A stretch of DNA of 57,696 bases from a virus: the IMG/VR virus record IMGVR_UViG_3300043493_000066, positions 1 through 57,696 of that record; one strand, written 5' to 3'. Under the pieces are notes generated by a model that saw only the letters and a list, made by a program, of their open reading frames with translations, was not told where the DNA came from and ran no database searches. This document shows positions 7,358 to 21,885 of this stretch, one piece after another (within the stretch, counting starts at the first letter, position 1; each line of letters opens with the position of its first letter). The translations under genes were made by a program, and so were the position numbers.

Positions 7358-9849
7358 GCGATCGCGGCGGCGTCGGCGTTGAGCGCGTTCACCAGGGCGC
7401 GCACCTGGTCACGCGGACCCATCAGTTGCGCAACCGGCCGGCCGTTGACCCGGATGTCGTGCATGACCATGTCCTGCCGCCCAGCGCCTTCGGGCCTGAC
7501 GATGCCGCCCTCGGCGAGCGCGCGCACTAAGGTCCCGCCCATGGCCGCGAACATCCGGCGCGTATCCGGAGCGCTGTAGACCTGTGCCGGCGACAGGAAC
7601 CGAACGAGCTCTGGCCCTTCTTCGCCTACCAGCGCCAGACCGCTCGCGCGGCCGCCGCGGGCGAATCCCGGCACACCGCCGCCGGCGATGTTCGGCTGCA
7701 GGTTGACCTTGAACTCCTCGCGCTCGATCGCGCTGCGGATGGAGCTGACCAGGCTGCTGAGGGAGGTTTGATCGGCGCGGATCTTGACGTCGGACAGCGC
7801 GTTGTCGCTGATCGACGCGAGCTCCTGCTTGAGGTTGGTCAGCTGCTCGGCGACAGCCTCCGATCCCTTCTTCGCGTCCTCGGCGATTGACTTGGCTGCC
7901 GTCTTTTGCGCGCCGAGCCCCTGCTCGAACAGCCGCTGGTTGTCCTCGAGGAAGTTCCTGCCGAGCGCCACGAAGCCGAGATCGCCGAGCTCCTTCGCCA
8001 GGCGCTGACCCTCGGAGAAGAACTCCCTCTGCTTCTCGATGTTGCCGGTCAGGACCGCGTTTCGAAGGTTCCCCTCGTTCTCGAGCGCACGGATCCGGAG
8101 CGAACCCGCCTTCTGCTCGTCGGTGAAGCCCGCCTCGTCGATCTGGCGGACGAGCTCTGCCGTGGACTTGCGCGAGTCGGCGAGCTGCTTGTCGAGCTGG
8201 AGGATCTGCGCCTGGTTCGTCTTGTAGACGTTGAGGTAATCGTTGTTCCTGGCGATCAGGTTGTCGTACAGGCGCTGACCGGACTGGATCAGCTCGACGT
8301 TGGCCTTCGTCCCCATGTCGCCCCGCGCGCGGGAGAGCTTCGACTCGGTCTCGAACGCGTTCTGGGCGGCCGCCACGCGGCGATCGATCGACTGGATCTC
8401 GGCGCGCTCGAGCTCGCGCTGGCTGGCCAGGAGGTTGCCCGTCGATGCGAGCCGTGCCTGGGTGGCAGCGAGATCCGCGGCGATGCCCTTCTCGATCGCG
8501 TTCTGCGAGGCCTTCGCGACCAGGTCGATCAGCTTGATCTGCTCGTTCGCGGCCTCGGCGCCGATGAACTCGAGCTTCGGCTTCTGCGTCTCCTGCTTCG
8601 CCTCCTCGCCGGCGCCCGCGACGATCGTCTTCGCCGTCGCCGTGCCGATCGACATGATCCGCTCCTGGAAGCGGTCTAGCTCCTTGCGCGCGCGATCGGC
8701 GTCCTCCTTTACCGCCTCGCTGATCGCGTTGAAGGTCTTGAAGTCCAATCTCTGCAGGGCTTGAAACTGAGCTGCAATGGCCCCGATCTCACGACCGACC
8801 CCGACGAACACGAAAACGACGTCGGAGCCGAGAACGGCGATCGTTTGGAAGACGTTGATGACGGCGCCCAGAGCGGCCTTCAGGACGTCGGAGGCGGACG
8901 CCGCGTGCTCCTGGTCCTTTGCCAGGTCTGCGATCGTTTGTTTAAACGCGTTGAGCTGTGGGAGGAGGTCGAGGGCGATGGCCTGCGCGTGCAGGCTGAT
9001 CTGGGCGGAGAGCTTCTTTTGCCGGTCGGAGTACTCGTCGGCGAGCTTGATCTGCTCGTCGGTCAGGATGCTCTGCAGGCCTACGCCGCTCGCGAGCTCC
9101 TTCAGGAACGGCAGCGCTTCGGCGCCGGATTTGCCGAGAAGGGCAGTGGCGACGGCGGACTTGTCTGCGCCCTCGGCGTATTGCTCGAGGGCCCTGGCGA
9201 TCGTGAGGAAGCGCTCGACGGGCGACTGCCGCTTCACCTCCTCGATGTTCAGCCCGAGCGTCGCGATCGCCGCGCCGGCTGCAGAGGATTCGTCGTCGAC
9301 CCCGGTCAGGTTCTTCGTCAGCTTGTTCGCCAGGGTGGCGAGCGTGTCCATGCTGATGTTGCCGACCGAAGCGGAGACGGCAAGCGATGCGACGTTCGAC
9401 GCGGTGTCGCCGATCTTCTCGGCCAGGTCCTGGAAGTTGCCGGCCTTGTGGATCAGCTGGTCGAACGCTGCCGCGGCCGCGATCGAGCCGGCGACGGCAA
9501 CGGTGCCGAGAAGCGCGAACCCTGTCCTCACCGACGCAAGAGCAGCGGCGTTCCGCTCGTGCGACTCGGTCAACCGCAGCGCGGTGTCCGCGGTCTTCAG
9601 CTGCTCGTTCGATGCGCCGCGCAGCGCGAGGCGATAGAGCTCGGTCTCGCGCGCCGACTTCCCGATCGTGGCGTTGTGCGCCTGCAGCCGCCCGATGTAC
9701 TGGTCGATCGAGCGCGACGCGGCCGTGCTGATGTCCTTCTGTCCCTCGCCGAGCGTGCGAATCGACTTCTTCGCGTCCTCGACGCCGGCGCGCAGTTTTC
9801 GAGAGTCGGCAACGAGCTCGATTACACCGCGGCCGATCACATCGCTCAT
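7354..9849 (-). CDS. Tail tape measure protein (831 aa)
   Basis: Long alpha-helical A/L/Q/E-rich ORF directly after the G/GT chaperone. Start set at ATG 9849 (MSDVIGRG...), which overlaps the stop of the T frame (ATGA). Confidence 0.85.
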   Translation of the reverse strand: MSDVIGRGVIELVADSRKLRAGVEDAKKSIRTLGEGQKDISTAASRSIDQYIGRLQAHNATIGKSARETELYRLALRGASNEQLKTADTALRLTESHERNAAALASVRTGFALLGTVAVAGSIAAAAAFDQLIHKAGNFQDLAEKIGDTASNVASLAVSASVGNISMDTLATLANKLTKNLTGVDDESSAAGAAIATLGLNIEEVKRQSPVERFLTIARALEQYAEGADKSAVATALLGKSGAEALPFLKELASGVGLQSILTDEQIKLADEYSDRQKKLSAQISLHAQAIALDLLPQLNAFKQTIADLAKDQEHAASASDVLKAALGAVINVFQTIAVLGSDVVFVFVGVGREIGAIAAQFQALQRLDFKTFNAISEAVKEDADRARKELDRFQERIMSIGTATAKTIVAGAGEEAKQETQKPKLEFIGAEAANEQIKLIDLVAKASQNAIEKGIAADLAATQARLASTGNLLASQRELERAEIQSIDRRVAAAQNAFETESKLSRARGDMGTKANVELIQSGQRLYDNLIARNNDYLNVYKTNQAQILQLDKQLADSRKSTAELVRQIDEAGFTDEQKAGSLRIRALENEGNLRNAVLTGNIEKQREFFSEGQRLAKELGDLGFVALGRNFLEDNQRLFEQGLGAQKTAAKSIAEDAKKGSEAVAEQLTNLKQELASISDNALSDVKIRADQTSLSSLVSSIRSAIEREEFKVNLQPNIAGGGVPGFARGGRASGLALVGEEGPELVRFLSPAQVYSAPDTRRMFAAMGGTLVRALAEGGIVRPEGAGRQDMVMHDIRVNGRPVAQLMGPRDQVRALVNALNADAAAIA

Positions 9850-10166
9850 TCTTGATTCCTCATGGTTTCGAGGGCAGCCCCTTCGAGAGTGCGGATTGAG
9901 TCGAAGACTTCGGCGCGCTCGCTTGCCGGTACGCCCACCAGGCGCATTACGGACTGGAGCACCGCGTAATCGAGACCCGTGCGACCAGCCATCGAGGTCC
10001 GCCACTGCGTGCTCATGGCGTTGAACACGCACACCGCCAGCCAGTTATCCGGCCAGACCTCGACTGGCGGTCCCTGCGCTTCCTCGAGCGTCAGCCCGAT
10101 GCGCTTCGCTTCCTCGGCGGTAGGCGGCACCGTATAGAGCGCAGCGCCTACCGCTTTCAGTTTTTT
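9846..10166 (-). CDS. Minus-1 frame extension of the tail assembly chaperone (gpT-like part of the G-T fusion)
   Basis: The -1 frame reads KKLKAVGAALYTVPP...WPDNWLAVCVF..QW..GLDY, which resembles DUF1799/gpT. It has no start codon of its own near the slippery site. Confidence 0.75.
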   Translation of the reverse strand, partial: KKLKAVGAALYTVPPTAEEAKRIGLTLEEAQGPPVEVWPDNWLAVCVFNAMSTQWRTSMAGRTGLDYAVLQSVMRLVGVPASERAEVFDSIRTLEGAALETMRNQE

Positions 10167-10471
10167 ACGCGCGCTCCGAGCAGCTCGTTGACGTAGGTCC
10201 GATACGTCGCGACCGCGGCGCCGCCGTAGATCTCGAGGAACAGCGTCACCGATTCCTTGGTGAACGGATCCTCGAGTTCCCACGCAGTGACCATCTCCAT
10301 GAACGATTCGGCGTCGGCCTTCTCGGAGCGGGACTTGATCCATGCATCCAGCTCCGACTTCGTCCGATGCTTGAACGTCATTTCGACGTCGACGGCAGTG
10401 CCCCCAGCTACCGGTACCGGCACCTTCCACTTGAAGCTGGGGTTCGCTTCTAGCTTGAGCTTGGTGGCCAT
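10157..10471 (-). CDS. Tail assembly chaperone (gpG-like, 104 aa)
   Basis: Lies between the tail tube and tape measure genes. Ends ...CGC GTA AAA AAC TGA, which includes the slippery heptamer. Confidence 0.8.
   Translation of the reverse strand: MATKLKLEANPSFKWKVPVPVAGGTAVDVEMTFKHRTKSELDAWIKSRSEKADAESFMEMVTAWELEDPFTKESVTLFLEIYGGAAVATYRTYVNELLGARVKN
10160..10166 (-). promoter_or_regulatory. Programmed -1 frameshift slippery heptamer A_AAA_AAC (G/GT)
   Basis: Minus strand reads GTA AAA AAC TGA. Slipping by -1 gives AAA AAA CTG AAA GCG, which is the 9846.. frame. Confidence 0.8.
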
Positions 10472-11223
10472 TACGCGGCGTACCGAACCGGCTCAGCGAG
10501 AAGCGACAGCGTCACCTCGACGGCCATGATCTGGTTCACCGTGAGGCTCGGCGTCTTGTTCAGCGAGACGTACGCGTTGTAGAGGATGATCGCGCCGCTC
10601 GGCAGCGTGATCCGCACGGCGCGCGGCAGCCGGTCATCGTTCGCCTCCGACGCCAGGATGTAGCCCTGGAGCGCCGGATCGTCAGCGATCTGGAAGGAGA
10701 GGCCCGCCGGCGACTTGAAGGTCGGGATCCGCTTCGCCGCATCCGCCTCGAGCAGCTGGTACTCGAGGAACTGCTGCTCGCCGCCGCTGGATGCGCTACT
10801 CAGGATCTGCGCGAGCTGCTGCCAGCCCGTGATCTCGCGGATCGTGCCAACACCTTCGCCGGCCGGATAGATGCTGGTCAGCGTCGTGTCGATGCCCTCG
10901 AGCGGTACGTCGTTCGTCGCGACCGTCCCGGCGCGCACGACCTTGTCGGTGAGACGCGACCATCCAGAGGTCACTTCGATGAACTCCCCGGTCGCGACTC
11001 CGTGCGCGGCTTCCAGAGTGGCGACGCCTGGGTCGGCGTTGGAGAGTGCCGTAATGTCCTTCGGAGAGCCGTAGCCAGATGCCAGCGCGACGAGCGAGCC
11101 GTTCGGCAGGCTGATCAGGTTGAGCATGAGGCCGACGCGCGACATGTACGCGACCAGCTGATCGTGGGCCATCTCCGCAACGAAGCGGAGGTACTGCTTG
11201 ATGCGCAGACAGAACGATTTCAT
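10471..11223 (-). CDS. Major tail tube protein (250 aa)
   Basis: Position is upstream of the chaperone. AAGGAG lies 8 nt before ATG 11223. The call rests on position and size. Confidence 0.65.
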   Translation of the reverse strand: MKSFCLRIKQYLRFVAEMAHDQLVAYMSRVGLMLNLISLPNGSLVALASGYGSPKDITALSNADPGVATLEAAHGVATGEFIEVTSGWSRLTDKVVRAGTVATNDVPLEGIDTTLTSIYPAGEGVGTIREITGWQQLAQILSSASSGGEQQFLEYQLLEADAAKRIPTFKSPAGLSFQIADDPALQGYILASEANDDRLPRAVRITLPSGAIILYNAYVSLNKTPSLTVNQIMAVEVTLSLLAEPVRYAA

Positions 11224-11253
11224 TTGCGAGACTCCTTCGTGGATGGGACAGGC

Positions 11254-11278
11254 ACAAAAAAGCCACCCGGAGGTGGCT
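11254..11278 (-). terminator. Rho-independent terminator-like hairpin (AGCCACC-tccg-GGTGGCT + T6)
   Basis: Minus strand reads agccacctccgggtggcttttttgt, between the DUF3168 gene and the tail tube gene. Confidence 0.6.
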
Positions 11279-11312
11279 GGGACTTTTGCCCCGCGAGGGG
11301 CGAACTGCTACT

Positions 11313-11666
11313 TCAACCGACGAACGAAAAATCCTGACGCGAGCCGTAGAGACCTGTTTCCTCGTCGTGCTGCGACACTGGCTCGCCTTCGACTGTTGTT
11401 TGAAGCGCGGTGACTGCGCGCAGGGCAGTTTCAGCCTGCTTCGACAGCGCCTTCGCCTTGATGCGGGTCTCTTCCCACACCGTGATCTGGAACCGCGGCA
11501 GTCCCTTGTCGGGCTGTGTGCCGTCGAGGAAATTGATCCCCGGCCCGCCGACCTGCTGGAAGGTGATGTACGGCGGCTTCGTTCCCACCGGCGCGTTGTC
11601 CGGATACACGCTGCTCTCCGCGACGAGCGTCTTCAGCGTGTCGAAGATCGACGACTCGATCGTCAC
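11313..11666 (-). CDS. Tail completion protein (DUF3168-like, 117 aa)
   Basis: Motif VYPDNAP..KPPYITFQQVGG, and position between the gp10-like gene and the tail tube gene. Confidence 0.65.
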   Translation of the reverse strand: MTIESSIFDTLKTLVAESSVYPDNAPVGTKPPYITFQQVGGPGINFLDGTQPDKGLPRFQITVWEETRIKAKALSKQAETALRAVTALQTTVEGEPVSQHDEETGLYGSRQDFSFVG

Positions 11667-12055
11667 GTTCTGAGGGTGTTCAGCTTCTCGGACATTCGTG
11701 CCAGGCCGTTGGCGACCGCCTCGTGGATCTTCCCGAAGGCCGGCCGCAGGAACGGATACGCCGGCGCGTTCGCTGTGCCGAACTCGATCAGGTGGCCGTG
11801 CGGCGCCTCCTTCCTGTTCCAGCTCACGCGGTACATCTTCGACGCGTCGTCCGAGCGCTCCGGCGAATAGACCCGGTAGATCGCCCTCTGGAGCAGGCCT
11901 GTCTTCTTATGCTTCTCGGCCTGCAGCCGCGCCTCGTCGTAGATCACGACGGCCATGCCGGCAGCGCCGACGCGCAGGACCTGCTGCTTGATCGCAGCTT
12001 CGTACTTGTCCAGCCCGGACAGGTCGCTGCTCAGCTTGGATCCGAACTCGATCAC
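11663..12055 (-). CDS. HK97 gp10-like head-tail joining protein (130 aa)
   Basis: GTG 12055 overlaps the upstream stop (GTGA). Motif GHLIEFGT..APAYPFLRPAF. The upstream extension in the track is R-rich. Confidence 0.7.
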   Translation of the reverse strand: MIEFGSKLSSDLSGLDKYEAAIKQQVLRVGAAGMAVVIYDEARLQAEKHKKTGLLQRAIYRVYSPERSDDASKMYRVSWNRKEAPHGHLIEFGTANAPAYPFLRPAFGKIHEAVANGLARMSEKLNTLRT

Positions 12056-12384
12056 GCGAGCCTCTTGCACATCAGCAGCAGCGGGCGGTGATCCTGGCCG
12101 AGCACGGCTTCGATGTTGTACGTCGCACCGTCGTGCACAACGCGCATCGCTGCCCGAACGCCTGGCCGGTAGTCGATGCCGATCCGCGTCAGCGCGGAAT
12201 TCTGGGTGGCGCCAGCCGCGACGTACTCCCGACCAGATACGTCCTCGATCCCAGCCCAGACGGTGGCGAAGTGGGTCCACCCCGGAACGAGCCCACCGAT
12301 CGCATCACGCGAGCTCGAGGGCGCCTCGATGCGGATCCGCTTGTCGCGGAGCTCGTACGCTGGCAGCTGCCTGGCCGCGATCAC
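12052..12384 (-). CDS. Head closure / head-tail adaptor protein (110 aa)
   Basis: Pattern LRDKRIRIE...G....W....VWA.IE..SG.E...I.YR.G......V..G..Y.I, as in the SPP1 gp16 / HK97 gp9-like family. Confidence 0.75.
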   Translation of the reverse strand: MIAARQLPAYELRDKRIRIEAPSSSRDAIGGLVPGWTHFATVWAGIEDVSGREYVAAGATQNSALTRIGIDYRPGVRAAMRVVHDGATYNIEAVLGQDHRPLLLMCKRLA

Positions 12385-13310
12385 ACGATGGCCCGGCGGC
12401 GATACGTGTCGAGCAGGCGATCGACGAACGGCAGCGCGATCGCGTTGCCCGCCATCAGCCCCTCAGGAGAGCGGTAGGCGGCCGCCACCTGGGCGCAGAT
12501 CCAGGTCCTGATCTCCGCCGGCACGCTCGAGCCGCCGGCGCCGTACCCGGCCGCAAAGCGGACGACGACCGCGCCCTCGACGCGCCTGGTCGACGGCCAG
12601 CTCTTCTCGAACGCCGGCCGCAGCCAGGCCGAGAGCAGCCGCTCCGGCTCGAGCACGTAGTCCGCGGAGTCCATCGTCTGCAGATCTCCGTCCTCGTCGA
12701 CGTACTTCACCGAGGTGATCGACGGCACCGGGAGCATGTCGATCTCGATCTCGCGGCAGAACGCGTCGAGCACGAGCTCCCAGGTCTGCGTGATCAGCGC
12801 CCGCCCGGTATCGCGCTCGGCGATGCGGCGGGCCGCGGTGATCAGCATCGCGAGCAGCGGGTCGCCCGCGGTGTTCGCGCTCGGCGCGCCGGCGCCGAGG
12901 CCCGAGTCCGCGACGTTGTCGGTGTAGACCGTCGTCGTGTTGTCGGCCAGCGTCGCGAGCAGTAGGAAGGTCGCGCCGCCGGCGGTCGTGCGATAGAGCT
13001 TCCGGCCGGTCACCAGCGCGCCGCCGATCGGGATCCCGGTGAGCTCGACCTTGCCGTTCACCGACTTGTTTGCCACGTTGACAGCGGCCGACACTGTGCC
13101 GGCTTGCGTCTCGCCGGCGGCCGTCGTGAAGGTGGCCAAGTACCGGTGCAGGCCGTTGTCCACGTTGCCGGCGATCGCGGGCGCGGCGAGCGCGGCCGTG
13201 AAGACGCCCGGCGCCGGCTCCTGGTTGCTCGAGTCGATCTTCGACCATGCCATGACCTCGGCCACGGTCACCGGTTCGGCAGCCGGTTCGGTGATGATCC
13301 TCAGCGTCAT
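12381..13310 (-). CDS. gp6-like head-tail connector protein with ~120-aa insertion (309 aa)
   Basis: N-terminus EPVTVAEVMAWSKID and the C-terminal part resemble the QLRG/gp6 connector family. The middle segment is extra. Confidence 0.65.
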   Translation of the reverse strand: MTLRIITEPAAEPVTVAEVMAWSKIDSSNQEPAPGVFTAALAAPAIAGNVDNGLHRYLATFTTAAGETQAGTVSAAVNVANKSVNGKVELTGIPIGGALVTGRKLYRTTAGGATFLLLATLADNTTTVYTDNVADSGLGAGAPSANTAGDPLLAMLITAARRIAERDTGRALITQTWELVLDAFCREIEIDMLPVPSITSVKYVDEDGDLQTMDSADYVLEPERLLSAWLRPAFEKSWPSTRRVEGAVVVRFAAGYGAGGSSVPAEIRTWICAQVAAAYRSPEGLMAGNAIALPFVDRLLDTYRRRAIV

Positions 13311-13906
13311 CAGGTCCTCTCGAACGCGAGCCAGGTGTTTGCGACGTGCACGATCGGCGCACCGCAGGCCGCGAGCTCGTCGAGCGTCTCGGAGACCTCG
13401 ACGGCCGCGAGGCCGTTGTCGTCGTGGAAGATGATGATCCCGCCCTTGCGCACGACCACTTTCGCCAGGTCGTAGTCGTTCAGCACGCCGGCGCGCGAGT
13501 GATCGGCGTCGATGAACGCGACGTCCGCGAGCGGCAGGTCATCGGGCGCCAGGTCGAACGCACCGCGCGGCCGCACGATCAGCTGGAAGCGCGGATCCGG
13601 CTTGGCGTACTTGCCGGGCTCCGCCGGCACTTCCTTCCTCTGGCACTCCCTGATCGTCACGTAGCCTGGCAGCACGTCGATTCCGACGTAGCGCTCGATC
13701 GACGGCACGTTGAGCAGCAGAGTCGCGGCCGCCCGGCCCTCGTTGCAGCCGAACTCGATCACCGTGCGCGGGTCGACGCTCGAGACCAGCGCGACCAGGC
13801 GATCGAGCTCGCCCGGGTTGAAGAACCGCGGCGGGAACTCCGGCAGCCTCGCAGCCGGCGCGTCCATCCTGATCGTCTGCCTGCTCGTTTTCGGTTGCGC
13901 TAGCAC
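13310..13906 (-). CDS. Class I SAM-dependent methyltransferase (CmcI/O-MT-like, 198 aa)
   Basis: Motif I VIEFGCNEGRAA, plus VAFIDADHS and GGIIIFHDD. GTG 13906 is preceded by AAGGGA. Confidence 0.7.
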   Translation of the reverse strand: MLAQPKTSRQTIRMDAPAARLPEFPPRFFNPGELDRLVALVSSVDPRTVIEFGCNEGRAAATLLLNVPSIERYVGIDVLPGYVTIRECQRKEVPAEPGKYAKPDPRFQLIVRPRGAFDLAPDDLPLADVAFIDADHSRAGVLNDYDLAKVVVRKGGIIIFHDDNGLAAVEVSETLDELAACGAPIVHVANTWLAFERT

Positions 13907-14856
13907 AGCATCCCTTTCACGGCTCCAATGACCCCCGCTTCATCCGGATAGGTCGGTCTCGAAAATGTTGGCTCCCACTCGGCCAGATCTGTGAACCGCA
14001 CGCTGGCCAGGCCGAACGGCTCGCAGGTCATCGCCCGCGAATCGATCGCCGCGATCGCGACGGCCGCGCCCACGCTCGCCGCGGGAATGGCCGCATGCAC
14101 TCGCAGCGTGAAAACCCGGCCGGCCCTGGCGAAGACTCTGAGCAGCGACGCCGGATCCGTGATGAGCTCAGGCGCGAACCCGTTTAAACGAGCCCAGTCG
14201 TAGTCGCCCCACGTCGGCGCGATCACGCGCAGCCGCCCCGCCATCCTTTCCGCGACGCGGTGCAGCGCGCCGGCGAACCACTCGTGTTCGCTTCGATGAA
14301 CGAGCAGCACGTCCCAGTCCGCTGTGCCGGCCGTCACGCAGTACTCCGGCGCCGCCCACCAGCTCGAGCACGGAAGCAGGATGGAGCTCACGCCCGCCTC
14401 TTCGTAGATCCGCTGCATCGTGCGATCGCGCGCGATGTGATGCGGGAACGACTTCGCCATCCTCAGATAGCGCCGGCGAAACGGCTCCGCCGCGATCGCC
14501 TCCGCCATCTCGTCAATGCTCGGCCACGGGTCGGCGTACGGATACGAAGATCCCGCCCACCCGTCGATCACCCGGACGCCTGCCGCGTGCAGGTTAAGCA
14601 GCCGCAACCAGATCCGGTTCTCCCAGAACTCGTCGCCCTTCGACATCGAGAAGCGAGGGTTGCCGCACAGCACGACGCGATCGCACGCGGCCGCGGCACG
14701 CCAGTCGTCCGGCCGGTCCTGCAGCATGGCGATGTTCACGAAGACCGCCTCGGGAACCGCGGCGCGCACCAGCCAGCGGATCCCCGCGGTGATCAGATGC
14801 CATCCAGGATTGCCCGTGCTACTTATTTCGACCGGCGTGATCAGGCCGACGCGCAC
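13900..14856 (-). CDS. Polysaccharide pyruvyl-transferase-like / glycosyltransferase-like protein (318 aa)
   Basis: GTG 14856 follows GAGGAGG. Has STGNPGWHLITAG near the N-terminus and VFTLRVHAAIPAASVGAAV near the C-terminus (PS_pyruv_trans-like). The upstream part of the track ORF is R-rich. Confidence 0.5.
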   Translation of the reverse strand: MRVGLITPVEISSTGNPGWHLITAGIRWLVRAAVPEAVFVNIAMLQDRPDDWRAAAACDRVVLCGNPRFSMSKGDEFWENRIWLRLLNLHAAGVRVIDGWAGSSYPYADPWPSIDEMAEAIAAEPFRRRYLRMAKSFPHHIARDRTMQRIYEEAGVSSILLPCSSWWAAPEYCVTAGTADWDVLLVHRSEHEWFAGALHRVAERMAGRLRVIAPTWGDYDWARLNGFAPELITDPASLLRVFARAGRVFTLRVHAAIPAASVGAAVAIAAIDSRAMTCEPFGLASVRFTDLAEWEPTFSRPTYPDEAGVIGAVKGMLC

Positions 14857-16408
14857 AAGCCTCCTCGATGAACGATTGAGCCCGCGCAATCGCGTGCGGC
14901 ATGTCGATCCGCTTGTCGCACGCGTGCGTGTGGCTCCAGCACGGGCACGGGCTGATCGGCTCGATCGGCAGCCACGGCGTGACCCGCGCGCCGGCGGAGA
15001 ACGACTTCGCATCCTCGTACCCGCCGAAGACCGTGATCGCCGGCGTGCCCACGGCCTGCGCCAGCAGGACCGCGAAGCCAGGCGCCGAGAACGCGAGCGC
15101 CGCTCGATCGAAGAGCCCGGTCAGCACCTCGAAGTCGAGCTCGCCGGCGTGATACTCGACGTCCGCCTCGAGCTGCGGCCCGACCGTCCATTCGACATCC
15201 GGCACCAGGTCAGCCACCGACACCAGGAAGAACCGGTCGCGGATCGCCTGCAGGATCTCGACGTACGCGTCTGGATCCGGGTTCCTGGTCGTCGCCCCGC
15301 CCCACTCCTTGCGCGCAACGAGCGGCCTGTAGACCAGGATCTGGCGCTTCGTACGGAAGAGCGCATCCGCCTTCTTGCGCCAGGCCTTCGGCACGGGCAT
15401 CCGGAAGTCGCCCACCGGCACACCGCACACCTCGGACATCGCGCCAAGCACCGAGCCGGTCGCCTTCACGCGCATCGGCGAGTAGCTCGGCCTGATCTCC
15501 GGCGTGCCCGCCGGCGCCTTGCCGCCGCGGTACAGCTCGGCCGATCGCGCCTCATTCTTCGCCTGCGTTCGCAGGTTCGACAACACGGGCAGCAGGTGCA
15601 GCTGCGGCATGTCGTGGTAGATCTGCGGCCAGGGCGTCTTCAGCCACACCTCGTGCCGGCGCATGAGCTCGCGCACGACCGAGCGCTGGTGCAGGTTGTC
15701 ACCCATGCCGGACATGCCGTGCAGCACCAGCGGCGCCTTGGCGGGTTTCAGCGCCCGCTCGAGCGGCAGCTGCTCGAAGCAGGTGATCGCCGTGCGGCGC
15801 GTCGCATTGACGACCTGCACGCCATTCGCGCGCAGATCCGCCCCGAGCTGCACCATCAGCCGCGTCCATTCCGGCAGCGTCCCGAGGTTCGGCAGCCCGC
15901 CCTCGTGATCGCCGTGGAAGTGGCTCTCGTTCTTCGGGCCGCGCTGCATGTCGTACCCGAGCAGGATGTCGCGCGCGCAGCCCCAGTGATACACCAGGCC
16001 GAGCGCCATGTAGCCGCTGTTCTTGCCGAAGTGCACGCGCCCTGGCTTCGTGCAAAGGCCGACACCATCGACTACGACTTCAACGAATTTCAGCTTCGCG
16101 CGAACGCGGGCAGATACGGGGCCCCATTGCGCGCCGAGCGCGCCGCCGATGTCAGCGGCCGCCCACAATTCGCCGGCGAACGTGTCGAGCGCCTCGTCGC
16201 CATAAACCGCCCACCAATGCGGATCAGCGGCGAAGAGCACATCAGCCCACAGCGCCTTCCTGAACGTCGTGCCTACGACGACTACGTGACGGTCTTGCGG
16301 CGCCTCGAGGGCCCACGCTCTGACGAGCTCGACGTCGCGGTCGGTGAGGCTTGGGCCACTTGCGATGCAGACGACAGTCGACCCAGCCCATCGTCCGGTG
16401 CTTTTCCC
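14819..16408 (-). CDS. Body (frame B) of a Maf/DUF115-like + GT9 heptosyltransferase-like fusion transferase, reached by -1 shift from 16599..16402
   Basis: VVCIASGPSL...VVVVGTTF...ADPHWW resembles the Maf/CstII type. LVLHGMSGMGDNL...AVLLAQAVGTPAITVFGG resembles GT9. Frame B has no plausible start, and GC3 is low upstream of the heptamer. Confidence 0.6.
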   Translation of the reverse strand, partial: GKSTGRWAGSTVVCIASGPSLTDRDVELVRAWALEAPQDRHVVVVGTTFRKALWADVLFAADPHWWAVYGDEALDTFAGELWAAADIGGALGAQWGPVSARVRAKLKFVEVVVDGVGLCTKPGRVHFGKNSGYMALGLVYHWGCARDILLGYDMQRGPKNESHFHGDHEGGLPNLGTLPEWTRLMVQLGADLRANGVQVVNATRRTAITCFEQLPLERALKPAKAPLVLHGMSGMGDNLHQRSVVRELMRRHEVWLKTPWPQIYHDMPQLHLLPVLSNLRTQAKNEARSAELYRGGKAPAGTPEIRPSYSPMRVKATGSVLGAMSEVCGVPVGDFRMPVPKAWRKKADALFRTKRQILVYRPLVARKEWGGATTRNPDPDAYVEILQAIRDRFFLVSVADLVPDVEWTVGPQLEADVEYHAGELDFEVLTGLFDRAALAFSAPGFAVLLAQAVGTPAITVFGGYEDAKSFSAGARVTPWLPIEPISPCPCWSHTHACDKRIDMPHAIARAQSFIEEACARRPDHAGRNK

Positions 16409-16599
16409 GCTTCTCCCACGATGGCCGCAGCTCCGGCCACGCGCAACACCTGGTCGACCCGGCGATTCACGACCCGGACCAGGCCCCGCTTCTCCAAGTC
16501 CGCCGCCGTCCTCTCGTCGATCATGACCGCGCGCCCCTGATGGGCGTCGATGCGATCGTGCAGGAAGCTCGTCAGCGGTACGCACTCAACTTGCATGAA
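16282..16599 (-). CDS. Frame A upstream ORF (105 aa if not shifted); its first 66 codons form the N-terminus of the fusion
   Basis: ATG 16599 follows GGAG. GC3 is high and composition natural up to the GGGAAAA site, and poorer after it. Confidence 0.55.
   Translation of the reverse strand, partial: FMQVECVPLTSFLHDRIDAHQGRAVMIDERTAADLEKRGLVRVVNRRVDQVLRVAGAAAIVGEAGKAPDDGLGRLSSASQVAQASPTATSSSSERGPSRRRKTVT
16402..16408 (-). promoter_or_regulatory. Candidate -1 frameshift heptamer G_GGA_AAA joining frames A and B
   Basis: Minus strand reads GCG GGA AAA GCA (frame A) and GGG AAA AGC ACC (frame B). Phasing was checked against both ORF coordinates. Confidence 0.5.
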
Positions 16600-16630: not shown

Positions 16631-16660
16631 GCCCGGACGGTCAGCAACAACCGCCCGGGC
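16631..16660 (-). terminator. 10-bp stem-loop just downstream of the major capsid gene
   Basis: Minus strand reads GCCCGGGCGG-ttgttgctga-CCGTCCGGGC (one G:U pair). The following U-tract is weak, so it could be an attenuator or stabiliser rather than a full terminator. Confidence 0.45.
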
Positions 16661-16674
16661 TCCCGTCATGCGCT

Positions 16675-18000
16675 TTACGTCCACGGCAGGTTCGCGTTCT
16701 TGATGAACGCCTCCGGCCGATACACCGCCAGCGCGAGCCGCTCTTCCGCGCGGATCGTGATCATGTTGCGAACGAAGTCGTCCTCGTTCTGCGTCGCGAT
16801 CACGATGTTGACTTCCTCGCGGTCAAACAGCTGAGCGCCCATGCGGAACGCACCGACCAGGGCCGTATCGACGGTCATCGATTGCGTCGCCACGACCGGG
16901 CGGCCCCAGAGAGCGGGCTGAGCCAGGTTCTGCGGGTTCGCAAAGATGTACGCGCCGGTGTTGTCCTTCGTGAGCTCGATCGCCGCCCAGTCAGACGGGT
17001 GCAGCACGATTCCCGTCGACGGATACTGGGCGAGCTCCGCCTGCAGCAGCATCAGGCGCAGCGTGTCGATCTTCGTCGGCGACGGCACGGCGATCGGCGC
17101 GGAGTACGCCGTGGCCTGGGTGTAGATGCCGTTCAGGTTGTTGCCCGACCCCGAGCCCTTCAGCAGCTGCCCTTCCTCGATCAGCTTCACGCCGTAGCGC
17201 AGGCGGCCGTCGATGTTGGACTGCAGCTGGAGGAAGTCATCGAGGATCTGCTTCGACGCCTTGATGAAGTGCGCGATCGTCGAAACCGGCGACTGGACCC
17301 ATTCGTAGGTCAGCGACGATTCCGGCTTGCGCGCCGTGGCTTCCGACACTGGTGCCGCGTTGTTCGTGAAGCCCGTCTCACGAACGTACGAGATCATGTT
17401 CGAGGACGTGCGCCCCGGCATGATCAGGTCGCGTACCGTCAGGCGCTGCTGCGTGCCCGGGACCGGGGCTTGCTCATCCGGCCGGACGCCGACGGTAGTC
17501 GTGTCCGTGGTCGGCGTGCTGGTGAGCTCGGCCTTGAGCGTGTAGAGGAAGCCCGATTGCACCGAGCGCATCCCGCCTGCCTCGAGCCAGGCCTTGTACT
17601 CCGGCGACTCGACCATGCGCGCGCCGATGCTCTTGACGATTTGCTTCTCATCATCGGTGCGTTTGGCCAGTTTCCGCTCGGTCTCCTGCAGACGCGCCTG
17701 CAGCTCGCCCTGCTTGACGAGGATCTCGTCGACCTTCGGCTTCAGTTCCGCCGACATGTCGCCGGTCTTCTTCGCCTCGGCGAGCGCGCGTTCGCCCATC
17801 GCCTTCACTTCGCCGCTGATCTTCTCGAGCGCCTTCTTCGTCTCCTCGGCGATCTGCTTCAGATCCGGCGCGGTGTCGAGCATGATGCCGGCGACGGCGA
17901 CCGAGGGATCCAGAATGCCGAACGCGAGTGCGACGGCGAGCAATGCGGCGACGATCAGCCGCACACGATTTTCCTGCCACGACTGCCTGAAATAGTTCAT
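16675..18000 (-). CDS. Major capsid protein, HK97 family (441 aa)
   Basis: N-terminal coiled-coil delta-like region followed by an HK97-fold-like body (..ISYVRETGFTNNAAPV..KPES...TIAHFIKASKQILDD..). ATGA overlap with the protease stop. Confidence 0.9.
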   Translation of the reverse strand: MNYFRQSWQENRVRLIVAALLAVALAFGILDPSVAVAGIMLDTAPDLKQIAEETKKALEKISGEVKAMGERALAEAKKTGDMSAELKPKVDEILVKQGELQARLQETERKLAKRTDDEKQIVKSIGARMVESPEYKAWLEAGGMRSVQSGFLYTLKAELTSTPTTDTTTVGVRPDEQAPVPGTQQRLTVRDLIMPGRTSSNMISYVRETGFTNNAAPVSEATARKPESSLTYEWVQSPVSTIAHFIKASKQILDDFLQLQSNIDGRLRYGVKLIEEGQLLKGSGSGNNLNGIYTQATAYSAPIAVPSPTKIDTLRLMLLQAELAQYPSTGIVLHPSDWAAIELTKDNTGAYIFANPQNLAQPALWGRPVVATQSMTVDTALVGAFRMGAQLFDREEVNIVIATQNEDDFVRNMITIRAEERLALAVYRPEAFIKNANLPWT

Positions 18001-18902
18001 GTGGTTTCCTTGATTGAGAGGTTTTTGATGCTGTTCAGGTACTCACTTGCATCGGCAGCGCTCGGCGTGCCGCTGTCAACAGCGCTGGGCGTGCTGACGC
18101 CGGCAGCGCTGGGCGTGCCGGTTCCGACAGCGCTAGGCGTGCCGGCCTTCAATGCTTGAATTAGTGCGCGCCGCGCGCTTCGCGGCATGCCGTACTGGGC
18201 CATCACCATGTCGGGGCGCAGGGCGGCGAGGCGTTCGCGCTTGTAGCTGGCGTCCTTCTTGACCTCGTCCGCGGGCAACAGGCCGTCGGCGAAACCCTGC
18301 TCGACGGCCGCAGTGCCACCGATCCAGGTTTCCATATCCATCAGCTTCAGCGCGTCTTTCATGTCCATGCCGCTGCGCGCGGCGTAGATGTCCGCCATCG
18401 CAGCATCGAACGGCTCGAGCATGTCGGCGGTCTCGCGCAGGTCGTTCCGGTTTCCCATCGTGATGACCCACGTATCGTGAATCATGAGGAAACCGGCACG
18501 GGCGATCAGCACCTCATCGCCAGCCATCGCGACGATCGATGCCGCGGAGGCTGCCAGGCCCAACACCTTTACCGTCACTTTGCCCTGGTGTTCGCGCAGC
18601 AGGTTGTAGATAGCCATGCCTTCGAACAGATCGCCGCCAGGTGAATTGATATTTACGACGACGTCCTTGTCGGCGCCGATCGAGCGCAGCGCCGCAGCAA
18701 TACGCTTCGCCGTTACGCCTTCGCCGGTCCACGGATCCACGCCGATCGCATCCAGCACGGAGATCGTGCTCTCCTCCGAAGCGGCGGCCGCCATCAGATC
18801 AGGCGTCCAGCGCTCGAGCGCCTGCGGCACGACTTCCCACTGCAGGCCTTTAGGCTGCTCGACCTTCAACGCTTTCGGCATGGTTCGTTTGCTCATGGCC
18901 AC
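17997..18902 (-). CDS. Prohead maturation protease, ClpP/S49-like (301 aa)
   Basis: INSPGGDLFEGMAIYNLL...VLGLAASAASIVAMAGD. Lies between the portal and capsid genes. The C-terminus carries GTPSA repeats. Confidence 0.85.
   Translation of the reverse strand: MAMSKRTMPKALKVEQPKGLQWEVVPQALERWTPDLMAAAASEESTISVLDAIGVDPWTGEGVTAKRIAAALRSIGADKDVVVNINSPGGDLFEGMAIYNLLREHQGKVTVKVLGLAASAASIVAMAGDEVLIARAGFLMIHDTWVITMGNRNDLRETADMLEPFDAAMADIYAARSGMDMKDALKLMDMETWIGGTAAVEQGFADGLLPADEVKKDASYKRERLAALRPDMVMAQYGMPRSARRALIQALKAGTPSAVGTGTPSAAGVSTPSAVDSGTPSAADASEYLNSIKNLSIKETT
18055..18144. repeat. 4 x 24-nt tandem repeat encoding (G/S)TPSA(V/A)xx at the protease C-terminus
   Basis: (g/a)cagcgct(c/g/a)ggcgtgc(c/t)g occurs at 18055, 18079, 18103 and 18127. 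Confidence 0.8.
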
Positions 18903-20212
18903 TCCTTCACCGATTTATCAGCTGATACGGTTTCGATCCCGAGCCACGCCAGAAGCGCGTCTCGCGCACTACTGCCCGCCGCCGGCGCCTTGCCCAGCTG
19001 GTCGAGCGGCATCAGGTTCGACTGCACGGTCAGCACGTCACCGCCAGCCATCGGCGGGTCGTTCTCGAGCCTGCGGATCTCGTTGCGGGTCTTCCAACCG
19101 TTCTGCCCCGCCGATGCGTAGAAGGCAGCGCGCGCCGTTGAATCGCCGCGCAGCAGCCCTTCCATGTTGAACTCGGCGAAGAATGTCAGCCGCTCGACAG
19201 GCGTCAGCAGGTTCTTGCGTACCGCCTGCTCGATTCGTACGCACCATTTGCGCAGCGCGAACACTAGGAACCACAGCATCTTCTGCTCGAGCCCAGTGCC
19301 CCAGTTCGAATCCTTGCCACCGTGACCGACCATTGCCGGATCCAGACCGAACCATCTGCAGATCTCTTCGACGTTCCAGGATCGGCTGGCAAGGAGCTCA
19401 GCGTCGACCGGATTGAACTTCAACTTCTCGAAGCCCGTACCCTTTTCGAGCACGTACACACCGCCTTCCACCGCGACCTTCTTGACGTGCTCCCTGATCT
19501 GCTCGCGCTGCTCGTTTTTCAGCACCGAGGCGACGGTGATGATCCCGGGCGATCGCATGGCATCGCGGAACGTCTCGGCGCTTGCTCGGTCCGTCTCGAT
19601 CGACGTGCCGAGCACGTTCGTTCCGTATGCCACAGGGGATAGACCCAGCACGCCGTCAACGGAAAACGCCGGGATATGCATCATGTCCGCCTGGGCAATC
19701 ACGCGCTCACCACCACCTGCCGCTCGATAGCGGTACTCAACATTGCCATTCGCCAGCCGGCTGACAGTCACGCGCCAGGGCATGAGAAACCCAAGGGCTA
19801 CGACCGTTCGGCCGCTGCGGAAGATCTCGATGTAGGCGTTGCCCCAAAGCAGCATCGAGGCGACCACCGCCTCCCAGAACACAACCGCCGTCATATCGTC
19901 GTTGGGCTGGTTGTGCAGCAAGTCGTAGAGCGCATGGCTCGTAGCAACCGTCCGCGAGCCGTCGGCGTTGCGCTGATAGAAGCCGAGGGGCAACGTCGCC
20001 AGCGTCTCCGAGATCAGCCTGACACACGCCCAGACCGTCGCCAGCTGCAGCGCGCTGTCGACAGTGACTCGCTTCCCGAGAAAATTTCCACCGATGTTGT
20101 GGAACAGGTCACGCCAGAACCCGTGATCCTTCAGCGTGATCCCTTTGCCGAGCCAATCCTGGAGCGCGGCCTTCACCGCCAGTAGGTGCCGCCGGATGCC
20201 GATCTTCTCCAT
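18893..20212 (-). CDS. Portal protein, HK97 family (439 aa)
   Basis: ATVWACVRLISETLATLPLGFYQR motif, and position after TerL. Confidence 0.9.
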   Translation of the reverse strand: MEKIGIRRHLLAVKAALQDWLGKGITLKDHGFWRDLFHNIGGNFLGKRVTVDSALQLATVWACVRLISETLATLPLGFYQRNADGSRTVATSHALYDLLHNQPNDDMTAVVFWEAVVASMLLWGNAYIEIFRSGRTVVALGFLMPWRVTVSRLANGNVEYRYRAAGGGERVIAQADMMHIPAFSVDGVLGLSPVAYGTNVLGTSIETDRASAETFRDAMRSPGIITVASVLKNEQREQIREHVKKVAVEGGVYVLEKGTGFEKLKFNPVDAELLASRSWNVEEICRWFGLDPAMVGHGGKDSNWGTGLEQKMLWFLVFALRKWCVRIEQAVRKNLLTPVERLTFFAEFNMEGLLRGDSTARAAFYASAGQNGWKTRNEIRRLENDPPMAGGDVLTVQSNLMPLDQLGKAPAAGSSARDALLAWLGIETVSADKSVKEWP

Positions 20213-21885
20213 TACGCGATGATCGGGTCGAGCAGCGAATCGGCGAGCGTGCCCTGGGCCTCAGGGTTCAGCGACAGGAGCGCGATCGCGTTGAACAGCG
20301 CGAGCAACGGATCGATCTTCGCTGTCCCGGCGGCCTGTTTCGTGATGATCACGGCGTTCCCTCTCGGTTCGACCTTGGCGTTGCCACAGCACCAGTTCAT
20401 CAAAGGCTGCCCACCATGGATCAGCCCACCTTCCGCGAGCTTCCGCTCCGCGGTCTTGATCGCGCCGGTCATCTTCCAGCCCTGCGAGATCCCGACGACC
20501 TTCTCCTTCGGCACGCCGGCGGCTACGATCGCATCGAGAATCCCGCCGATCCCAGCCGGGTCGACACCGATCTTGTCGAGCTTCCCGGTGGCCTCGACCT
20601 GCGCGGCGATCGCGGCGACCTGGTCGACGTCGTCTCCGATCTTTTCCACGATCGTCAGATCACCATCCTTCTCGAAGTCGCGGAACCGTTCGGCCTCCGA
20701 CTTACGGCGCTCGAGCACCGACGGGTGCGCCCATGCGTGCGACCAGGAGACCCAGTTCCCGCTCTTGTGCTCGCGGCCTAGCACGTTCAGGCCGAGCAGG
20801 TCGTCGAGGCCTCCGCCGTCCACGCCGAGGTCGAACACCTCGCAGCGCTCGAGGAGCTGCTCGAGCGTGAACGCGGGCTCGGCCTGGCCTTCCCAGTAGT
20901 CGGCGCCGGCCCAGCGATCGGAGTGCAGCGCGAGCCCGATCTCGACGTTCAGATGCTGCGACGCCCAGGCGCGGAGCTCGCCCTCGCCGGTTGCTCGAGC
21001 GCTCTCGAACTCCTCTACCAGGCGGTCGATCGTCACCGAGCGGCCGGCGTTCGGCGTGACCATGTGCCAGTTCGCCGGGCTTCTCCAGGCTGCGGCCTCG
21101 GCCTGCATCTCCTGCGGGAACTCGTAGAGCACCGGCAGCATCGCACCGGTCCGCTTCCCGTCCCGGATCGCCCGCGCCTTCATGAGCTCGGCGCGAAACA
21201 CGCCCGCCGGCGCTTCCTCCGATTGCGTCGTGATGAACGCCATGAACGCCTCGGGGAACGGCAGCATGCCGCCCCGCAGCTGGCGGATCGCGCTCGCCGC
21301 CTTCGCCATCTTCGCGACGACGTGGAGCTCGTCGATCAGCACGCCGGCGCACTTCTGCCCGGTCAGCACCGCCGGGTCGAACGTCATGATCTGCAGCGCC
21401 GCACCGGTCTCCCGGTGGATGATCGTCTTCAGGTGCTCCCGGATGTGCAGCTTCTTGTGCAGCACATTGTCCAGCGCGATCGCGCCGGCGGCCGCGGCGA
21501 ACGCCAGCTCGGCGACGTCGTGCACCGGCGCCGTCATGATGAAGGGCGCGCTCGGCCGGCGGTTCAGGAGCAGCGCCGTCAGCATCAGCAGCGCGCCGTT
21601 CGTCGTCTTGCTCGACTTCTTCGGCACGAGCAGGAAGAGCTCGCGGATCGCCCGCATGAGCGAGGCCGGATCCAGCGACCCGAAGAGCGCCCGGACGATG
21701 TCGCGGAACCATTCGCCCGCGGCCTCGCCCATCGTCGGCGTTCCCGGTACGTCCGCCAGGCGCAGCTTGTTGAACACCGCGACCGCCCGGTTACCTTCCG
21801 CCGTGTTCAGCGGCAGGCTTGGGACGAGCGACCTGCCGGCCTTGAGGCGATCGCCCCAGTCCGGGCACGACAGATCCCAGCTCAT
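20212..21885 (-). CDS. terL: Terminase large subunit (557 aa)
   Basis: P-loop-like LLVPKKSSKTT, and size and position typical of the Terminase_1 family. Confidence 0.9.
   Translation of the reverse strand: MSWDLSCPDWGDRLKAGRSLVPSLPLNTAEGNRAVAVFNKLRLADVPGTPTMGEAAGEWFRDIVRALFGSLDPASLMRAIRELFLLVPKKSSKTTNGALLMLTALLLNRRPSAPFIMTAPVHDVAELAFAAAAGAIALDNVLHKKLHIREHLKTIIHRETGAALQIMTFDPAVLTGQKCAGVLIDELHVVAKMAKAASAIRQLRGGMLPFPEAFMAFITTQSEEAPAGVFRAELMKARAIRDGKRTGAMLPVLYEFPQEMQAEAAAWRSPANWHMVTPNAGRSVTIDRLVEEFESARATGEGELRAWASQHLNVEIGLALHSDRWAGADYWEGQAEPAFTLEQLLERCEVFDLGVDGGGLDDLLGLNVLGREHKSGNWVSWSHAWAHPSVLERRKSEAERFRDFEKDGDLTIVEKIGDDVDQVAAIAAQVEATGKLDKIGVDPAGIGGILDAIVAAGVPKEKVVGISQGWKMTGAIKTAERKLAEGGLIHGGQPLMNWCCGNAKVEPRGNAVIITKQAAGTAKIDPLLALFNAIALLSLNPEAQGTLADSLLDPIIA

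Follow-up and report, generated by a model that had tools for sequence, protein, structure and literature searches.

A putative glycan-building cassette behind the capsid gene of a temperate phage, with a predicted programmed -1 frameshift

The IMG/VR virus record IMGVR_UViG_3300043493_000066 (positions 1 to 57,696, all 57,696 nucleotides of which are here called the window) carries an island of four open reading frames (ORFs) between the major capsid protein (MCP) gene and the gene for the head-tail connector. They encode a small protein of 104 amino acids (aa), a two-domain enzyme, a pyruvyl-transferase-family protein and an S-adenosylmethionine (SAM)-dependent methyltransferase. We tentatively read the island as a late-operon cassette for building a glycan, most likely on a virion (head) protein, and we infer that its central enzyme is made from the small ORF by a programmed -1 frameshift. 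A sequence-only reading of the window, made without database searches, had placed a transferase island between the capsid and connector genes, and both the gene order and the profile matches of the two flanks confirm this. The three enzymes that it named also stand, but its count of three genes does not, as the fourth ORF at 16282-16596 was missed, together with the predicted -1 frameshift and the wide spread of the cassette in phages D3 and PAJU2, in jumbo phages and in many prophages. The genes themselves were already partly labelled in public records; our results suggest that the predicted, conserved -1 frameshift of the cassette and its proposed head-targeted role are new.

The enzyme is encoded by a 588-aa ORF (14819-16585) on the minus strand, as is the whole island region, and its conserved part begins at about residue 62. 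It contains the motifs VVCIASGPSL and ADPHWW that the sequence-only reading had singled out, and matched PHROG 4603 ('alpha-2,3-sialyltransferase') over residues 74-280 (E 3e-35) and PHROG 6804 over residues 287-561 (E 3e-38). An AlphaFold2 (AF2) model built on 42 homologs had a predicted local distance difference test score (pLDDT) of 92.3, and according to this model the enzyme is a fusion of an MptE/Maf-like nucleotide-binding fold and a GT9 heptosyltransferase-like GT-B fold. The first of these (15731..16390, minus strand) is a predicted MptE-like / Maf_flag10 (DUF115, PF01973) domain, as indicated by PHROG 4603, Foldseek and the Pfam matches of homologs, with GPSL, NSG, LLGYD and HxHGDH as conserved elements. 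PF01973 was matched by 18 of the 42 homologs (best E 8.9e-5), and the homolog in jumbo phage Eowyn scored 30.1 bits against a cutoff of 34.6. Foldseek showed that the domain has the fold of the solved members of PF01973, with a match to the archaeal HPPK MptE of M. jannaschii (8sd5; E 6.6e-5, probability 1.0, template modelling score 0.46-0.55). A second AF2 model gave a pLDDT of 86 for the N-terminal part, which viral 'MptE-like' proteins from uncultured phages and giant viruses in BFVD matched down to E 1e-13.

The C-terminal half (14861..15730, minus strand) is assigned to the GT9 heptosyltransferase-like GT-B domains by its Foldseek matches to GT9 enzymes, which included WaaF (1psw, E 1.1e-7), TibC (4rap, 2e-7), a GT9 protein (3tov, 3.2e-7) and WaaC (2h1f, 2.1e-5) in a range up to 4e-5; the matches to 1psw, 3tov and 2h1f all had probability 1.0. 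Its N-terminal motif GMSGMGDNLHQR, with an invariant Asp at codon 15698-15700, parallels KTSSMGDVLHTL (SSMGDVLHTL) of WaaC, the two sharing S-x-MGD-x-LH, whose G, M, G, D and H do not vary in 11-42 homologs. The corresponding residue of WaaC, D13, is what we take to be the proposed catalytic Asp of the N-terminal Gly-Asp motif. Near the C-terminus of the enzyme there is a conserved, putative metal-binding motif, CxCxxHxHxC (14918-14947). The GT9 family PF01075 was matched by 8 of the 42 homologs (best E 0.003) and not by the window protein, and an hhalign comparison with the C-lobe of WaaF (residues 176-289) gave E 0.003 and a probability of 10%. Profile searches of the enzyme against PDB sequences returned nothing meaningful, and fold comparison alone worked. 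The sequence-only reading had proposed a search for transferase folds, and its domain assignments are supported by the fold comparisons and by the profile matches of the proteins and their homologs.

Behind a TGA at 16586-16588 the enzyme frame is open, and past a GTG at 16585 it contains no ATG, GTG or TTG until the conserved RWAGSTVVCIASGPSL is reached. The initial 61 codons of the 588-aa ORF are non-coding, since the GC content by codon position upstream of 16408 is 0.84/0.77/0.42 in the enzyme frame versus a coding-like 0.76/0.41/0.84 in the frame of the small ORF. A slippery heptamer, G_GGA_AAA (16402..16408, minus strand), lies in the register X_XXY_YYZ with the small-ORF frame, and the pattern occurs twice in the whole window with both strands counted. 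The heptamer falls within a linker, disordered in the AF2 model, between a 44-residue domain of the small ORF and the MptE-like domain. A -1 slip at this site would read VGEAGK directly into STGRWAGSTVVCIASGPSL and yield a trans-frame product of 592 aa (14819..16596, minus strand; read in frame 0 over 16596-16402 and in the -1 frame over 16402-14819), in the predicted order small domain, linker, MptE/Maf-like domain and GT9-like domain. A candidate stimulatory hairpin with a 10-bp stem and a 10-nt loop (16368..16397, minus strand), taken from an RNAalifold consensus of 8 loci, begins 4 nt past the heptamer.

We scored the junction in 62 related loci from phage records, IMG/VR and GTDB. No start codon is present up to 30 codons from the ASGPS motif in 31 of them, a count in which D3 was included despite a GTG, and all 31 start-less loci have a long ORF in the frame from which a -1 shift would depart. 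A hidden Markov model (HMM) of the small domain identified it in 23 loci at E < 1e-3, always in this source frame and never in the +1 or the enzyme frame. Strict in-register X_XXY_YYZ heptamers were present in 19 loci at 21-63 nt from the motif, in the forms GGGAAAA/C, CCCAAAG (D3), CCCTTTA/C, AAAGGGC, AAAAAAC and GGGCCCT. For nine loci (including those labelled L003/4, L005, L006, L007, L012, L047 and L048 in our collection) the heptamer is GGGAAAA and lies exactly 45 nt before the motif, the distance being fixed while the flanking codons vary. In four loci (L008, L009, L043 and L044) the frame is interrupted by a stop 12-27 codons ahead of the motif and offers no start codon afterwards; in L043 and L044 this stop leaves about 7 codons for a shift, and C_CCT is located within them. 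About 25 loci including PAJU2 have no small ORF and an ATG of their own 11-17 codons before the motif. Finally, the small domain and the enzyme are joined as in-frame fusions in P0025 and P0047 (loci L086 and L087), directly after the capsid gene. From these comparisons we infer that the enzyme is produced via a programmed -1 frameshift from the small ORF.

Gene callers instead assume separate overlapping genes, with the enzyme starting at GTG 16585 or at an internal codon (the V of VLFAADP). Such an arrangement agrees with the public annotation, in which an internal Val or Met is taken as the start of most database homologs, with the presence of GTG 16585 and with the GTG of D3, which is situated 20 codons upstream of the ASGPS motif and could permit independent initiation. 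The candidate hairpin had no covariation support (-0.17) and its single-sequence fold was no more stable than shuffled sequences (z = +1.25). Moreover, 12 frameshift-type loci are without a strict heptamer, most of them sharing C_CCT or C_CCC. However, the first beta-strand would be lost with an internal start, as would the invariant GPSL motif for nucleotide binding, and initiation at GTG 16585 would add 61 residues of non-coding composition. Neither start explains the loci with a stop before the motif and no start codon after it, the constant frame of the small domain, the in-frame fusions or the spacing of the heptamer, and we regard separate initiation as quite unlikely. Sequencing error was rejected because the frame change is common to about 30 independent assemblies, and transcriptional slippage was rejected on the length of the A-run, which is only four bases. 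In RefSeq, orf7 of D3 (L001 5088-5546) begins at ATC (Ile), which is not a start codon; about 30 conserved N-terminal residues, the GPSL motif among them, are left out of the annotation, which keeps orf6.5 as a separate hypothetical protein.

The small ORF (frame 0; 16282..16596, minus strand) starts at ATG 16596 with GGAG upstream, encodes 104 aa and is a homolog of D3 orf6.5. It consists of a beta/alpha domain of about 44 aa, a disordered linker and a tail that is S/T/P-rich and then basic and overlaps the start of the enzyme frame; in the AF2 model residues 1-44 had a pLDDT of 83-93 and residues 48-61 of the linker were disordered. The N-terminal domain is found in PHROGs 7993 and 2616, neither of which has a known function, and small phage proteins of 60-85 aa match it structurally. 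Its profile had one match in a database search. In a library of 1.8 billion proteins, 26 proteins of about 100 aa share the layout of the small ORF, and the full-library search recovered no informative fusions of the domain to other proteins; a 1035-aa repeat protein from this search was discarded as a false positive. Relatives without the cassette also have a gene for 70-120 aa right after the capsid gene (phi1026b gp6, vB_PstS-pAN gp06 and vB_MseS-P1 gp35), the product of which has a similar N-terminal pattern and a basic low-complexity tail. The match of vB_MseS-P1 gp35 to DUF7302 is weak, as are those of the small domain to DUF7302 / 'FI'-like post-capsid proteins (Pfam E 6e-4 and 0.04). 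The frame-0 product would have kept the ancestral post-capsid function, and the frameshift product would use the same domain as a tether.

The frame-0 tail (16282-16401, minus strand) is overprinted on the conserved N-terminus of the enzyme, SSASQVAQA lying over VVCIASGPS, which may represent dual coding. In every lineage the tail turns S/T/P-rich and then K/R-rich (in D3, L001 4984-5115), like the tails of the post-capsid proteins in cassette-free phages.

The second enzyme gene encodes a 318-aa protein that probably belongs to the polysaccharide pyruvyl-transferase family (13900..14856, minus strand). The family named in the sequence-only reading is retained, and the start is moved from 15012 to GTG 14856, which has a GAGGAGG Shine-Dalgarno sequence upstream and gives a protein of the same length as the homologs. 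Against PF04230 (PS_pyruv_trans) the window protein scored 24.0 bits, just under the cutoff of 25.3, and 30 of 36 homologs matched the family (best E 1.9e-12); a profile search against PDB sequences gave no match. The gene is optional, being present in 5 of 38 viral loci (the window, L011, L022, L027 and L031), and no isolated phage of the collection has it. In the closest relatives (83-89% identity) it is missing, with about 4 kb of ORFs in its place. In L004, for example, a 214-aa ORF (5264-5908) follows the capsid gene and precedes the small ORF, and about 4.2 kb with five ORFs without Pfam matches (8356-12558) separate the methyltransferase and connector genes.

The third enzyme is a class I SAM-dependent methyltransferase (13310..13906, minus strand), as had been proposed. 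It matched Methyltransf_24 (PF13578; E 4.8e-11) with 43.9 bits against a cutoff of 26.3, over profile positions 1-104 of 105, and had weaker matches to O-methyltransferase and rhamnosyl-O-methyltransferase profiles. Its gene is located directly downstream of the enzyme in about 30 of 37 viral loci (46-94% identity), the homolog in L087 also matches TylF, and in three-domain homologs of 640-660 aa Methyltransf_24 is fused to the enzyme.

The genes of the island are tightly packed. The enzyme and pyruvyl-transferase-family genes overlap by 38 nt, the latter and the methyltransferase gene by 7 nt, and the methyltransferase and connector genes by 1 nt (TGATG). The GC content of the island is 0.678 versus 0.652 in the rest of the late operon, with third-position values of 0.84-0.91 compared to 0.79-0.94 in the neighbours, in agreement with the earlier statement that composition and coupling match the late operon. 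A scan found no sigma-70-like promoter or intrinsic terminator inside the island, the products of which are translationally coupled to the capsid and connector genes. Since the genes overlap without an internal promoter or terminator, co-expression with the virion genes is plausible, as had been suggested. The island also interrupts the capsid-to-connector order, as claimed: the order in the cassette-free phi1026b, vB_PstS-pAN and vB_MseS-P1 is MCP, small gene and connector, and the island is therefore a real insertion relative to these phages.

More than 70 phage and prophage loci from Proteobacteria contain the core trio of MptE-like, GT9-like and SAM methyltransferase proteins, usually right after the capsid gene. 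The enzyme was detected by tblastn in 57 phage records, among them D3-like Pseudomonas phages, PAJU2 and jumbo phages of Enterobacter and Klebsiella/Serratia, and the N-terminal domain alone in jumbo phages of Caulobacter and Brevundimonas. The trio co-occurs in D3, PAJU2, Eowyn, 37 IMG/VR loci and 40 loci in GTDB genomes, the latter mostly from Alpha-, Beta- and Gammaproteobacteria. A SAM methyltransferase almost always follows the enzyme, Methyltransf_24 in the window lineage and the unrelated Methyltransf_23 in D3, PAJU2 and Eowyn. With respect to synteny between capsid and connector, which the sequence-only reading had proposed to survey, the cassette directly follows the capsid gene in those viral loci whose flanks hold a recognisable capsid gene, but the trio of Eowyn is located elsewhere. 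Phage records already carry the labels 'alpha-2,3-sialyltransferase', 'glycosyltransferase family 9' and 'methyltransferase', and ORF010 of PAJU2 (MptE-like) was labelled 'structural protein' by its depositors, although the basis of this label could not be read. In the searchable literature we found no published study of the cassette, of the function of D3 orf7, orf12 or orf13, or of a frameshift at this position.

Among isolated phages, the nearest parallels are the uncharacterised homologs orf6.5, orf7, orf12 and orf13 of D3 and gp10, gp11 and gp12 of PAJU2. The head-tail joining module of both phages encodes an MptE-like and a GT9-like protein (31-35% identity) with a SAM methyltransferase after them, and D3 also has the small ORF and the -1 arrangement, at C_CCA_AAG. 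Unlike in the window, the MptE-like and GT9-like domains are separate genes in D3 and PAJU2, no pyruvyl-transferase gene is present, and the Methyltransf_23 protein is not detectably similar to the Methyltransf_24 protein of the window. The enzyme domains of D3 are moreover split by connector genes and a KilA-N gene, whereas PAJU2 has its own ATG and no small ORF.

Taken together, these features are consistent with the following mechanism. Ribosomes that start at ATG 16596 would mostly finish the small protein, while a fraction would slip by -1 and so link the small domain to the enzyme in the 592-aa fusion. The small domain is proposed as a head tether because it resembles the small post-capsid proteins of cassette-free relatives, and it would bring the enzyme to a head-associated target. 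The products would be made late, together with the head proteins, and the enzyme would transfer sugars from host nucleotide sugars; host pools are assumed since no sugar-nucleotide synthesis or other sugar-related genes were detected among the 20 further window proteins that were scanned. As donors, the Maf-like domain could use a CMP-ulosonic acid, for instance CMP-Kdo, and the GT9-like domain ADP-heptose, and the glycan would then be O-methylated and, in the window phage, pyruvylated. An order of Kdo and then heptose, as in the inner core of the lipopolysaccharide (LPS), is purely speculative. Glycosylation of the virion, raised as a hypothesis by the sequence-only reading, is a reasonable hypothesis that gains from the post-capsid placement and from the predicted frameshift or in-frame fusion to a small post-capsid protein.

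In its most specific form, the proposal would be that in many temperate proteobacterial phages, among them the classical P. aeruginosa phage D3, a head protein is coated with a glycan that is methylated, and here also pyruvylated, and that resembles the LPS inner core, in which a Kdo-type ulosonic acid on Ser/Thr carries a heptose, both drawn from the universal host pools of CMP-Kdo and ADP-heptose, with the enzyme delivered through a -1 frameshift fusion to a small capsid-associated protein. That all of these details are correct is improbable. If they were, this would be a second conserved frameshift in the morphogenesis operon of tailed phages and the first virion-glycosylation system described for Gram-negative phages.

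A feature that could mark an acceptor was sought in the capsid proteins. Close to the N-arm of the capsid protein there is a T-rich stretch, TSTPTTDTTTVG, in the window lineage only. The GTPSA repeat at 18055-18144 (minus strand), earlier named as a possible acceptor, was rejected: it belongs to a G-T-P-x-A-A-type linker that the ClpP-type prohead protease carries in its C-terminal tail, and such repeats occur at the same place in all relatives (L003-L071, L084) and in the cassette-free vB_PstS-pAN. In HK97-type assembly the prohead protease is not known to be retained in the mature head.

Several findings weigh against a virion-modifying glycan cassette. The glycan, the acceptor and the enzymatic activity are all putative, and no S/T-rich C-terminal extension common to the capsid proteins of cassette-bearing phages was found in comparison with a cassette-free relative. 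The similarity of the small domain to the post-capsid proteins of cassette-free phages is weak (HMM E 1.6e-5 with a five-sequence set; hhalign probability 6%). In Eowyn the trio is placed among hypothetical genes with no annotated head gene nearby and, given also the roughly 25 loci with their own ATG and no small domain, tethering is not obligatory. The window enzyme itself had no Pfam match at E <= 0.1, the closest fold of its N-terminal domain is that of the pyrophosphokinase MptE, and neither CstII (1ro7) nor Maf was among the 50 best PDB fold matches of this domain in Foldseek. Because of the latter, the term 'sialyltransferase-like' goes back only to the label of PHROG 4603 and the shared membership in PF01973, and of the Maf/CstII-like and GT9 fusion proposed earlier, the Maf/DUF115-like (PF01973-type) and GT9-like assignments are supported while the likeness to CstII is not.

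Some of these points would suit a cassette that modifies envelope glycans of the host (LPS core or O-antigen, capsule, flagellin or pilin) rather than the virion, possibly so that progeny do not re-adsorb to debris or other phages are excluded. Among the GT9 enzymes, WaaC and WaaF, whose substrate is the LPS core, match the fold equally well; polysaccharides are the typical substrates of pyruvyl transferases (PF04230, CsaB-like) and of sugar O-methyltransferases, and flagellin is that of Maf enzymes. All hosts are Gram-negative, and the trio of the jumbo phage is away from head genes. Yet the genes lie inside the late structural operon, where stops overlap with starts and no promoter was found, and should therefore be silent in lysogens and expressed minutes before lysis, too late for remodelling of the outer membrane. 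An envelope substrate gives no obvious role to the post-capsid placement or to the frameshift or in-frame fusion with a small post-capsid protein, and neither a membrane-spanning segment nor a secretion signal was apparent in the models, although no formal test for such signals was made. We consider an envelope target unlikely. The resemblance to MptE, after which Pfam names PF01973 and which is the best solved-structure match of the N-terminal domain, could alternatively mean that this domain is a pyrophosphokinase or another nucleotidyl-utilising enzyme that modifies a small molecule or DNA, with the GT-B domain and the methyltransferase finishing the product. Phages are known to glycosylate and hypermodify DNA, and a Mom-like DNA-modification gene is present elsewhere in the window. 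But PF01973 also includes proven protein glycosyltransferases, and the partner domains are of the sugar type (GT9, pyruvyl transferase and TylF/CmcI-like O-methyltransferase). No hydroxymethyl-pyrimidine or other base-modification genes adjoin the cassette, and DNA-modification genes are usually found in early or replication modules rather than between capsid and connector. A substrate that is neither protein nor envelope glycan thus appears very unlikely, and modification of a head protein remains the reading that we tentatively prefer.

For both halves of the enzyme, protein-modifying relatives offer a partial comparison. Maf enzymes O-glycosylate Ser/Thr of proteins with nonulosonic acids and can use CMP-Kdo, and the Maf of M. 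magneticum has E324 and D415 as catalytic acidic residues (bioRxiv 10.1101/2020.06.03.131540). The cytoplasmic Maf flagellin nonulosonic-acid transferases (M. magneticum Maf 5mu5) belong to PF01973, the Pfam family predicted for the N-terminal domain of the window enzyme, and likewise have an N-terminal GPSL-type nucleotide-binding fold; unlike the window enzyme they have flanking flagellin-binding domains, and in the window the GT9-like domain stands in place of the C-terminal domain of Maf. TibC is a GT9-like protein heptosyltransferase with a Cys-coordinated metal site in the C-lobe, an N-terminal beta-barrel, a thumb in the form of a beta-hairpin, and a four-Cys iron finger (C339/342/358/370) (PMC4358343). 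The GT-B fold, the N-terminal S-x-MGD-x-LH motif and a putative C-lobe motif are common to WaaC, WaaF, TibC and the window enzyme, although the sequence identity is about 12%. The features specific to the TibC/AAH type (BAHT) were not found in the window enzyme, which has an MptE-like N-terminus and the differently spaced CxCxxHxHxC.

To our knowledge, glycosylation of virions by phage enzymes has so far been demonstrated experimentally only for a few mycobacteriophages. Capsid glycosylation shields mycobacteriophages from antibodies and is relevant to phage therapy. According to two papers that cite Freeman 2023 (PMC11256854, PMC12582341), mycobacteriophage capsids are glycosylated by phage-encoded enzymes, and for Che8 and other cluster F1 mycobacteriophages the first of these describes phage glycosyltransferases as proposed or shown to attach capsid glycans in the cytoplasm (PMC11256854). 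Unlike the window phage, these have actinobacterial hosts and glycosyltransferase genes near the 3' end of the genome and not beside the capsid gene, and no MptE-like/GT9 fusion, pyruvyl transferase or frameshift is reported for them. Chloroviruses and giant viruses likewise encode their own cytoplasmic machinery for capsid glycosylation (PMC5852040), and proteins of Mimiviridae and of a Pyramimonas virus match the MptE-like domain structurally. Unlike the window phage these are eukaryotic viruses with different glycosyltransferase families and N-linked glycans, and the evidence for homology is the shared fold only.

The frameshift is paralleled by gpG/gpGT of phage lambda, in which two overlapping ORFs are connected by an X_XXY_YYZ heptamer and a short, abundant product shares its N-terminal domain with a rarer long fusion, the same logic as proposed for the window. 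The lambda heptamer is G_GGA_AAG. Unlike the lambda gene, which encodes a tail assembly chaperone, the window gene encodes a predicted enzyme and follows the capsid gene. The window phage also has a classical shift of this kind in its own tail chaperone gene, which favours a -1 shift in the cassette as well. A frameshift in the cassette would add a recoding site outside the tail-chaperone gene, suggest a general means by which phages could attach enzymes to assembly intermediates in constant proportion and correct public records in which enzyme ORFs are truncated and 'orf6.5' is kept apart. If the proposed role is correct, virion glycosylation would extend to a large set of Gram-negative phages and prophages in Pseudomonas, Achromobacter, Enterobacter, Citrobacter, Bradyrhizobium, Caulobacter and other genera, through enzymes that are unrelated to those of mycobacteriophages and for which D3 and PAJU2 would be tractable models.

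The window represents a temperate phage or prophage, as judged from a tyrosine integrase, a ParB-like protein, a YqaJ exonuclease and an endolysin, and has the gene order of an HK97-like siphophage; no tRNA genes were found in it. Its closest relatives are soil-type IMG/VR contigs with 83-89% protein identity, and GTDB contained no close host genome. The late genes on the minus strand start with the large terminase TerL (20212-21885), the portal (18893-20212) and the ClpP-type prohead protease (17997-18902). The MCP gene (16675-18000), which forms the upstream flank of the island, encodes an HK97-type protein with an N-terminal delta domain (PF05065 Phage_capsid, E 8e-52; phrog_10, E 3e-71). 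The downstream flank is the gene for the 309-aa head-tail connector (12381-13310, minus strand; TIGR02215, E 5e-28; phrog_442, E 6.5e-28), after which come head-closure and tail genes, the tail chaperone and the tape measure. The gp6-like part of the connector covers residues 148-309 only, and residues from about 50 to 147 form an extra G/T/A-rich domain that matches phrog_511 ('internal virion protein') and phrog_17680.

Ahead of the island, and starting 15 nt past the stop codon of the capsid gene, the sequence contains a GC-rich hairpin, GCCCGGGCGG-N10-CCGTCCGGGC (16631..16660, minus strand), with 10-bp arms that include one mismatch and a 10-nt loop, followed by CTCTGCGTTT. The terminator scan did not score it as a terminator; it is possibly an attenuator or RNA-stability element that lowers the expression of the island relative to the capsid gene.

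The tail chaperone has a classical A_AAA_AAC -1 frameshift of its own at 10160-10166 (minus strand), just before the stop of a 104-aa ORF. The two ORFs involved are located at 10157-10471 and 9846-10430 (minus strand), and the -1 frame runs on as KKLKAVGAALYTVPP into a 194-aa ORF. The Mom-like DNA-modification protein (49521-50318, minus strand; phrog_1384, E 9e-25) is encoded just past the tyrosine integrase (47937-49094, plus strand), near the probable end of the prophage. The early region also encodes a DUF5131 (phage Gp37/Gp68-type) protein (43415-44314, plus strand; E 6e-72).

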